Assembly (NCBI GenBank): GCA_964016885.1
Contig: OZ024741.1
Coordinates: 35,402,001 to 35,466,000, forward strand
Source of the DNA: Eledone cirrhosa
Lineage: Eukaryota
DNA: 64,000 nucleotides
Reading direction: 5' to 3'
Below the pieces are notes generated by a model. That model was given only the letters and a program-made list of their open reading frames with translations. It was not told where the DNA came from and searched no databases. Both the position numbers and the translations under genes were made by a program. Positions within the stretch are counted from its first letter, which is position 1. Each line of letters starts with the position of its first letter. This document shows positions 1,808-2,079 of this stretch, piece by piece.

Positions 1808-1941
1808 TAAATGCGGCAGCTGCGGAAACTTGTAAAAGCCTGAAAGGCAACTGTATTGACAGCAGACTTTACTTGTGTACAAGTGTGACCAGATATGGCG
1901 TCTGTGGACAGAAAGATTACATAATATGTTGCCTCGATTAA
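1808..1941 (+). CDS. Internal coding exon (1808-1960, stop 1939-1941) of a small, probably secreted six-Cys beta-defensin-like peptide; the signal-peptide exon is presumably upstream of the window
   Basis: Poly-T tract and TTTTAG| acceptor at 1807, branch-like CTGAT near 1767, GAG|GTAAGG donor at 1960/1961. Phase-1 frame reads xNAAAAETCKSLKGNCIDSRLYLCTSVTRYGVCGQKDYIICCLD*. Confidence 0.8.
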
Positions 1942-2079
1942 ATGTCAAGAAACAAGGGAGGTAAGGAAATATGACACAACTGATTCTGGGGGGGGGGGGT
2001 CTTGCGCTAGTGTGTAGTGGTAACTAGATAATATTTGTGGTGGGGAGCAAACGAATAGACAAATAAATTGGAGTCGTGT

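Follow-up and report, generated by a model that had tools for sequence, protein, structure and literature searches.

Cysteine-rich repeats (CRRs) of the rusticalin type share the motif Cx6Cx6-7Cx8Cx7CC and are similar to beta-defensins and to the tick carboxypeptidase inhibitor, which remotely resembles a pair of such repeats (PMC6339383, Daugavet et al. 2019). A survey listed 382 CRR proteins, 124 of them with a known domain, which is a wall hydrolase in 63 of the 124 (PMC7379824, Daugavet et al. 2020). In other animals and in fungi the repeats normally precede wall-degrading enzymes, the PGRPs of oyster, scallop and mussel and the lysozymes of oyster carrying one to four of them; the list already includes, from other animals, proteins of unstated length with one repeat and no annotated domain, and none of its 70 metazoan rows is from an octopus (PMC7379824). 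Here we describe a locus of the octopod Eledone cirrhosa at which one module of this type is predicted to be encoded on its own. It lies in a 64,000-nucleotide stretch (the window) of the 3.0-Gb genome (assembly GCA_964016885.1, contig OZ024741.1, here C2, positions C2:35402001-35466000 of the forward strand), in which an exon at 1808..1960 had been predicted to code for a beta-defensin-like six-cysteine peptide. We conclude that this is probably a real unannotated gene and a further member of the known CRR module family, with a proposed function in innate defence.

The module exon

The features of the exon and its surroundings, all on the + strand and in window coordinates, are as follows.

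1..1807 (+), in-window end of a predicted phase-1 intron of 39 kb
1780..1807 (+), splice acceptor, T-run and TTTTAG (sequence; score rank)
1808..1960 (+), exon of 153 nucleotides (nt), phase 1 at both ends (sequence)
1810..1938 (+), 43 codons for the predicted end of a signal peptide and one six-cysteine module of CRR type and putative beta-defensin fold
1939..1941 (+), stop codon TAA, two residues past the CC (sequence; short-read contigs)
1958..1966 (+), strong donor GAG|GTAAGG, 19 nt past the stop (sequence; score rank)
2062..2067 (+), AATAAA, followed by a GT-rich tract from 2076, a possible alternative 3' end

The exon begins with two leftover bases (phase 1), continues with 43 codons to the TAA, and stays open for six codons between the stop and the donor. 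Its cysteines are residues 8, 15, 23, 32, 40 and 41 (spacing 6/7/8/7; first codon at 1831, last at 1930-1932), and a G-x-C motif is present at both Cys2 and Cys4. With five K/R against four D/E, the mature peptide has a net charge of +1 and an isoelectric point (pI) of 7.8, which agrees with the low charge originally noted. Ranked against the AG and GT sites of a 464-kb region by approximate matrices made for this analysis, the acceptor lies in the best 0.4% and the donor in the best 0.14%; they score at least as high as 17 of 21 and 15 of 21 sites, respectively, at the aligned exons of the neighbouring receptor guanylate cyclase gene described below. The hidden exon of the original prediction, with its TTTTAG acceptor, phase-1 frame, six cysteines and GAG|GTAAGG donor, is thus present in the DNA, and its splicing is predicted. 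Short-read contigs from three runs of one sample, possibly the source of the genome, carry the exon and the stop without difference. The boundary at 1960 is a prediction because the AATAAA and the GT-rich tract offer an end without use of the donor; AATAAA has a density of 0.88 per kb here, and the signal at 2062 may be due to chance.

A six-cysteine motif of this type occurs a single time in the six frames of the 464 kb. As a chance control, 60 Mb of order-4 Markov DNA were simulated. The loose motif arose 59 times there, in no instance combining the Cys2 G-x-C, the phase-1 acceptor and the near stop. When the single rates are multiplied, some of them resting on counts of 2/59, the expectation is about 5e-5 for one window and about 2 for the whole genome, in an estimate that leaves out the donor, the second G-x-C and the signal exon. 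Taken alone, the exon lies well outside chance expectation for one window, yet not for a 3-Gb genome, so that further evidence is needed.

Match to the rusticalin-type CRR

The spacing 6/7/8/7 fits the published CRR motif. Residues between the cysteines were compared with a set of metagenome modules (82 stretches with 97 matches, 2 of them excluded for their stops, giving 42 non-redundant modules), which were chosen on Cys, Gly and Pro positions alone and not from the alignment of Daugavet et al., and which, judging from the motif, would be the CRRs of these authors. On the 30 unselected columns the peptide scored -2.8, against -31.1 +/- 9.7 for 20,000 shuffles (p 0.0019), the score being carried by the I-D after Cys2, the Y before Cys3, the T in the next loop and the I before the CC. 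A hidden Markov model (HMM) of the modules gave the peptide 31 bits, and gave 0 or less both to the big-defensin domain of the same genome and to a chance open reading frame (ORF) with the spacing 6/8/9/7; among 17,360 local ORFs the peptide ranked first (E 3.5e-7; next 0.13). At the conserved CRR positions, as mapped from the published text (logo Gly 10, 21, 26 and 30; Pro 29 and 31), both G-x-C glycines are present, and the two other glycines and both prolines are absent. Taken on its sequence, the peptide is a divergent CRR-type module. Where the original prediction had suggested an uncharacterised cephalopod family, we found neither paralogue nor orthologue, and instead this match to a described and widespread module.

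Modules with the pattern G-x-C-I-D ... G-x-C-P-G ... I-x-C-C were found to be common in metagenome contigs (L186-L265, L268-L271), where as many as six follow one another in tandem (L194); the CRR-type pattern was also seen in four bacterial metagenome-assembled genomes.

A predicted upstream signal-peptide exon

The separate phase-1 signal exon that had been postulated upstream was found at a distance of 39 kb.

C2:35364546-35364678 (L005:2546-2678) (+), predicted signal-peptide exon of 133 nt, 37.3-37.5 kb before window base 1

Upstream DNA was scanned for an ATG, a hydrophobic run and a phase-1 donor with our own hydropathy rules, and this exon is the nearest match. It consists of 72 nt of untranslated sequence, the ATG, 20 codons and one base, followed by the donor GTAAGA, with the coding part at -37382 to -37322 relative to the window (C2:35364618-35364678). 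An acceptor of its own (poly-T/TAG) stands 72 nt ahead of the ATG, which has a purine at -3 and an in-frame stop five codons upstream; the encoded peptide has a basic N-terminus and a hydrophobic core. It is the sole loose phase-1 candidate on the + strand between the last exon of the cyclase gene (-56.7 kb) and the module exon, and the one strict candidate in 1.208 Mb, among 43 loose ones of any phase and strand; in the genome search it was single-copy.

The codon at the junction (one base plus two) is restricted to Leu, Ile or Val and is followed by a run of small residues. Such a run is a typical region of signal cleavage. The joined exons would give a 64-residue precursor with a mature peptide of 38-41 residues, in which the module follows the predicted signal peptide directly, as in secreted CRR proteins. 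The two exons are predicted to be paired and spliced across the 39 kb. Inside this intron lie two further strong acceptor-donor pairs, none of them open in phase 1-1. No exon was assignable as a separate 5' untranslated exon or as the 3' exon behind the donor of the module exon. A stretch at L005:4969-5101 (+) in the predicted intron, repeat-like by eye, has a good acceptor and donor and is a possible poison exon.

Predicted fold

In single-sequence AlphaFold2 modelling, the peptide gave a model with a pLDDT (predicted local distance difference test) of 65 that contains a short helix and strands. Foldseek returned five weak matches (E 1.2-4.8), four beta-defensin-fold peptides and Cypridina luciferase. 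In a wide structural search, 10 of 48,161 chains reached Z >= 2; nine of these are beta-defensin-fold peptides, and the one remaining is the Cypridina luciferase N-terminal repeat. The best match was CpoBD13 (Z 4.1, root-mean-square deviation 1.8 over 35 residues), and crotamine, which we take to have the beta-defensin fold, and the platypus defensin-like peptide were also among them. The chance ORF folded as one helix and had no Foldseek match. The peptide is thus predicted to take the beta-defensin fold, as had been proposed from its cysteines. Structures of the tick inhibitor, of panusin and of big defensins were not listed in these searches, an absence that does not amount to exclusion. 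The sole sequence match in PDB was the Cypridina luciferase N-terminal repeat (24ne, 24nk), with E 7.6 and a common G-x-C-I-D-S.

Searches for relatives

The peptide matched nothing in Pfam, defensin families included, or in NCBIfam, and the PF10468 profile of the tick inhibitor gave no match at E <= 10. Searches of a collection of 5.8 billion proteins (23-76 and 77-2000 residues) and of 1.84 billion representatives gave no homologue; in the ESM Atlas the best value was 0.77 and no usable match followed. Protein and DNA searches of the genome returned the locus itself alone. Three cysteine patterns were run over the genome, and TG satellites and one repeat family dominate among the matches listed. 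A fourth pattern with a fixed intron offset had 87 matches; in the 42 that were translated, six cysteines and a stop came from the module exon alone, and the other 45, left untranslated, are satellite- or repeat-like in appearance. Literature searches found no report of a cephalopod peptide of this kind.

The big defensin of the same genome

As far as the accessible text of PMC7203481 goes, the host-defence peptides it describes for cephalopods are big defensins only, those of Octopus being unannotated; for big defensins it also gives a phase-1 intron ahead of the cysteine domain. With a motif from its Octopus entry we located one copy of an intact canonical big-defensin gene.

C11:2863277-2863407 and ~2866640-2866950 (-) (L104, L105), big-defensin gene

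The exon of its hydrophobic domain lies ~3.3 kb upstream of its cysteine exon and ends in phase 1. By eye, this big defensin is nearer to the Architeuthis than to the Octopus entry of PMC7203481. Its cysteine spacing is 5/3/13/4 against 6/7/8/7 in the peptide, and BLASTP produced no alignment between the two domains. In the 14 non-canonical and 7 canonical big defensins seen in PMC7203481, Cys2 is separated from Cys3 by three residues and Cys3 from Cys4 by 11-13. A hydrophobic N-terminal domain was not found at the CRR-type gene, the 39-kb intron containing no open phase 1-1 exon with strong sites. Identity of the peptide with this genome's big defensin was considered and rejected, as the latter is intact on C11 and has another cysteine spacing.

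In both genes the phase-1 intron falls seven codons and two bases ahead of Cys1, Cys4 is residue 32 and the exon codes for 43 residues; beyond this their sequences show no likeness. The presence of a phase-1 intron is in itself weak evidence of a common lineage, since many secreted proteins have one behind the signal peptide. The big-defensin exon has no Pfam match either, and PF14862 found nothing over the genome even though the gene is present on C11. The profile misses a real big defensin, so blanks for a family in this genome are weak evidence; the unannotated Octopus genes and the exon without a Pfam match indicate that short genes escape annotation.

Genomic setting

The neighbouring gene lies upstream of the predicted signal exon.

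C2:35259415-35345312 (+), ANPR1-like receptor guanylate cyclase, 22 aligned pieces from -142.6 to -56.7 kb, with its own stop

Over 67 residues, the translation of a strong exon lying 119 kb upstream has 100% identity with the ANPR1-like guanylate cyclases known from Argonauta hians and Octopus sinensis, in keeping with an octopod genome. Two cyclase exons ~104.6 and 103.7 kb upstream are present in the Argonauta protein and not in the O. sinensis model, which may reflect an annotation gap or alternative splicing. The module exon was also considered as an alternative exon of the cyclase; this was rejected, the cyclase coding sequence stopping at -56.7 kb.

The rest of the window, as far as recognised, consists of retroelements and satellites. 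Remains of retroelements (GIY-YIG, reverse transcriptase and endonuclease frames) lie at 6788-7303, 25776-27578 and 42303-51841, and a 45-bp tandem repeat of 21 copies occupies window positions 1-939, 870 nt upstream of the exon acceptor. Further on, about 50 kb (C2:35666001-35716000) without a complex + strand ORF of at least 45 residues are probably a satellite array.

A putative stand-alone module and its possible origin

As predicted, the gene now codes for one module. The symmetric exon, with its frame open to the donor, is as a shuffled domain exon would be, and descent from a gene in which a CRR preceded an enzyme is plausible. Among 53 downstream exon candidates no enzyme content was recognisable, and motifs of such enzymes were not found. 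Elsewhere in the genome PGRP exons are present.

C26:7322867-7327851 (-), PGRP/Amidase_2 exons
C9:46425720-46425851 (+), PGRP/Amidase_2 exon sequence

No CRR-type frame was found near them, in 80 kb on C26 and 60 kb on C9.

Proposed function and alternative explanations

The explanation that we put forward, at about even confidence, is a functional unannotated octopod gene for a secreted peptide of 38-41 residues, which would act as a free helper of innate defence that binds the bacterial envelope and not as a membrane-lysing antibiotic. Splicing across 39 kb would join the signal and module exons into the 64-residue precursor; cleavage in the run of small residues at the start of the module exon would release the peptide, and three disulfides paired 1-5, 2-4 and 3-6 would make it compact and weakly charged. 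The enzyme half of an ancestral signal-CRR-enzyme gene would have been lost, the donor of the symmetric exon being kept behind a new stop. The free module might then bind peptidoglycan or another wall polymer, in an opsonin-like or enzyme-assisting manner, and work beside separately encoded amidases and lysozymes. The steady company that CRRs keep with wall hydrolases suggests such a wall-binding role. Direct lysis is unlikely in a marine animal because the charge is +1 against +4 for panusin, and because the isolated C-domain of an oyster big defensin was not bactericidal when tried on S. aureus at 20 uM (PMC6805989).

Several observations pull the other way. As to expression and conservation, no RNA runs supporting either junction were found, the three sequence runs that contain the locus being genomic contigs through both splice sites; and neither orthologue nor paralogue of the peptide turned up in the protein collections or genome searches. 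The strict criteria for the signal exon were written after the candidate had been seen, and its donor is modest, scoring above 5 of 21 real donors. The CRR HMM score is partly built in, the modules having been chosen with a shared spacing, and the peptide has no CRR Cys-Pro-Gly motif and falls in the bottom 2% of member scores. On the structural side, the four other models had a pLDDT of 39-50, the fold scores are low (Z <= 4.1, Foldseek E 1.2-4.8) though consistent in direction, and the chance ORF is a single, hydrophobic and imperfect control. No enzyme domain was found among 261 downstream and flanking + strand ORFs (237 of the 242 non-repeat ORFs of at least 45 residues from -56 to +264 kb, four more searched separately, the remaining one being the module ORF itself, and 20 further on), a search confined to ORFs of at least 45 residues outside the 59% of the DNA that is repeat-masked; three weak matches below the cut-off included no wall enzyme. 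A symmetric exon arises by chance one time in three, and the fusion-gene descent is therefore unproven. Finally, in what is accessible of PMC6339383, PMC7379824 and PMC12855814, no binding is shown for any CRR, and in the one experiment found, the CRR pair of a Trichoplax lysozyme stabilises and damps its enzyme and is cut off (PMC12855814).

This last case leads to the main rival, which keeps the same gene and fold and which we consider unlikely: the peptide would be an inhibitor or stabiliser of an enzyme (a lysozyme, amidase or protease of the animal itself, or an enzyme of its prey or of microbes), in effect a pro-domain acting in trans. Stabilisation of the Trichoplax lysozyme comes at a cost in activity (PMC12855814), the tick carboxypeptidase inhibitor resembles a CRR pair (PMC6339383), panulirin inhibits trypsin (PMC10886324), and magnificamide, of the same fold, inhibits amylase and is not antimicrobial (PMC6835510); the low charge would fit as well. 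Set against these, there was no match to family I68, either for the peptide or over the genome (the genome search being weak, as it recovered no control), the peptide has one module and two residues after the CC where the tick inhibitor has two domains, and no target enzyme was found nearby. We regard it as distinctly unlikely that the locus is a decaying stump, in which the two leading coding exons of a lost CRR-enzyme gene persist, interrupted by a nonsense codon, and no useful peptide is made any longer. Such a stump would explain the symmetric exon with its open frame and its strong donor past the stop, the divergence from the CRR consensus, the transposon-filled surroundings, and the missing homologue in collections that do contain the Argonauta and Octopus orthologues of the neighbouring gene. 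Yet the exon retains all six cysteines and the glycine of each G-x-C, three strong splice sites are intact and so is the signal peptide, no trace of downstream enzyme exons turned up, the stop stands neatly past the domain, and a missing annotation is to be expected for short genes, the genome's own Pfam-less big-defensin exon being an example.

We hold it improbable that the gene is a non-canonical big defensin, a duplicate of a big-defensin gene minus its hydrophobic N-terminal domain. Short forms of this kind arose in clams (PMC7203481), and the intron offset and 43-residue exon are those of the own big-defensin gene. The gaps of 7 (Cys2-Cys3) and 8 (Cys3-Cys4) nevertheless stand against 3 and 11-13, BLASTP gives no alignment, the own big-defensin domain fails the CRR profile, and the two genes are on different contigs. 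Equally far from our expectation, or slightly farther, is a venom peptide of the saliva that targets ion channels of the prey in the manner of crotamine or of the anemone toxins of beta-defensin fold; octopods are venomous, and crotamine and the platypus peptide are among the fold matches. The sharing of a fold shows no function, however, the gene is single-copy without expansion and its product weakly charged, and the accessible text of a preprint on cephalopod venom (bioRxiv 10.64898/2026.04.09.716377) names no such peptide. Nothing that we found points to the venom peptide family which the original prediction had also mentioned. A chance arrangement of non-coding DNA, of which motif, acceptor and stop would be expected ~2 times per genome and for which the missing homologue might speak, seems to us barely credible, because neither the donor and the second G-x-C nor the signal exon, the predicted fold and the residues specific to CRRs (p 0.002) enter into that estimate.

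CRRs occur on many antibacterial enzymes and their role is unsettled; a natural single module offers a clean, synthesizable test of binding versus inhibition. Cephalopod host-defence peptides are few, classical approaches having yielded none up to 2020 according to the accessible text of PMC7551771, and the peptide is an added candidate. Gene finders miss the gene because its coding sequence consists of two short pieces with 39 kb between them. It is one small predicted gene whose fold and module were already known, and the surprise is moderate. More speculatively, and on balance doubtful, octopods may have freed a CRR module from a wall-degrading enzyme through a stop in a symmetric exon, giving a stand-alone, weakly charged defence peptide of beta-defensin fold and a second route to short defensin-like peptides beside big-defensin truncation. 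The shared intron offset would then point back to a single ancestral exon from which CRRs and big and beta-defensins derive, and the peptide would be a natural reagent for identifying the targets of CRRs.

Comparison with known systems

Vertebrate beta-defensins and the lobster peptides panusin and panulirin resemble the gene in having a signal exon and one six-cysteine domain, and its best structural matches are among beta-defensins; their Cys2-Cys3 loop is shorter (4 residues in panusin, 5 in panulirin, against 7), and the strong positive charge of antimicrobial beta-defensins is not found in the peptide, with +4 for panusin and +8 for panulirin (PMC10886324) against +1 and a pI of 7.8; some non-canonical big defensins of clams are neutral or acidic as well (PMC7203481). 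Big defensins have the CC end and the trans-defensin fold, predicted for the peptide, in common with it, and differ in having 4-5 residues before the CC instead of 7 (as seen in PMC7203481); canonical ones carry a hydrophobic N-terminal domain, whereas the signal exon here ends after 20 codons. The tick carboxypeptidase inhibitor (MEROPS I68, PF10468) likewise has a beta-defensin-like domain, but two of them in tandem. The Cypridina luciferase repeat is similar in fold (Z 2.7-2.8) and in G-x-C-I-D-S, both weak matches, and unlike the peptide it sits in a 537-residue enzyme and has an extra cysteine. The closest likeness is to the CRRs of oyster PGRP-S, of lysozymes and of Trichoplax PLys, with which the peptide shares the glycines two before Cys2 and Cys4, G-x-C-I-D, I-x-C-C, the position just after the signal peptide and, as predicted, a beta-defensin-like fold. 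The Cys-Pro-Gly(-Pro) that follows from Cys4 in CRRs is replaced, and the PGRP exons of this genome are without a nearby CRR, unlike many bivalve PGRPs. Unlike those CRR-enzyme proteins, the predicted Eledone cirrhosa peptide is one module followed by a stop, with no second repeat and no enzyme.
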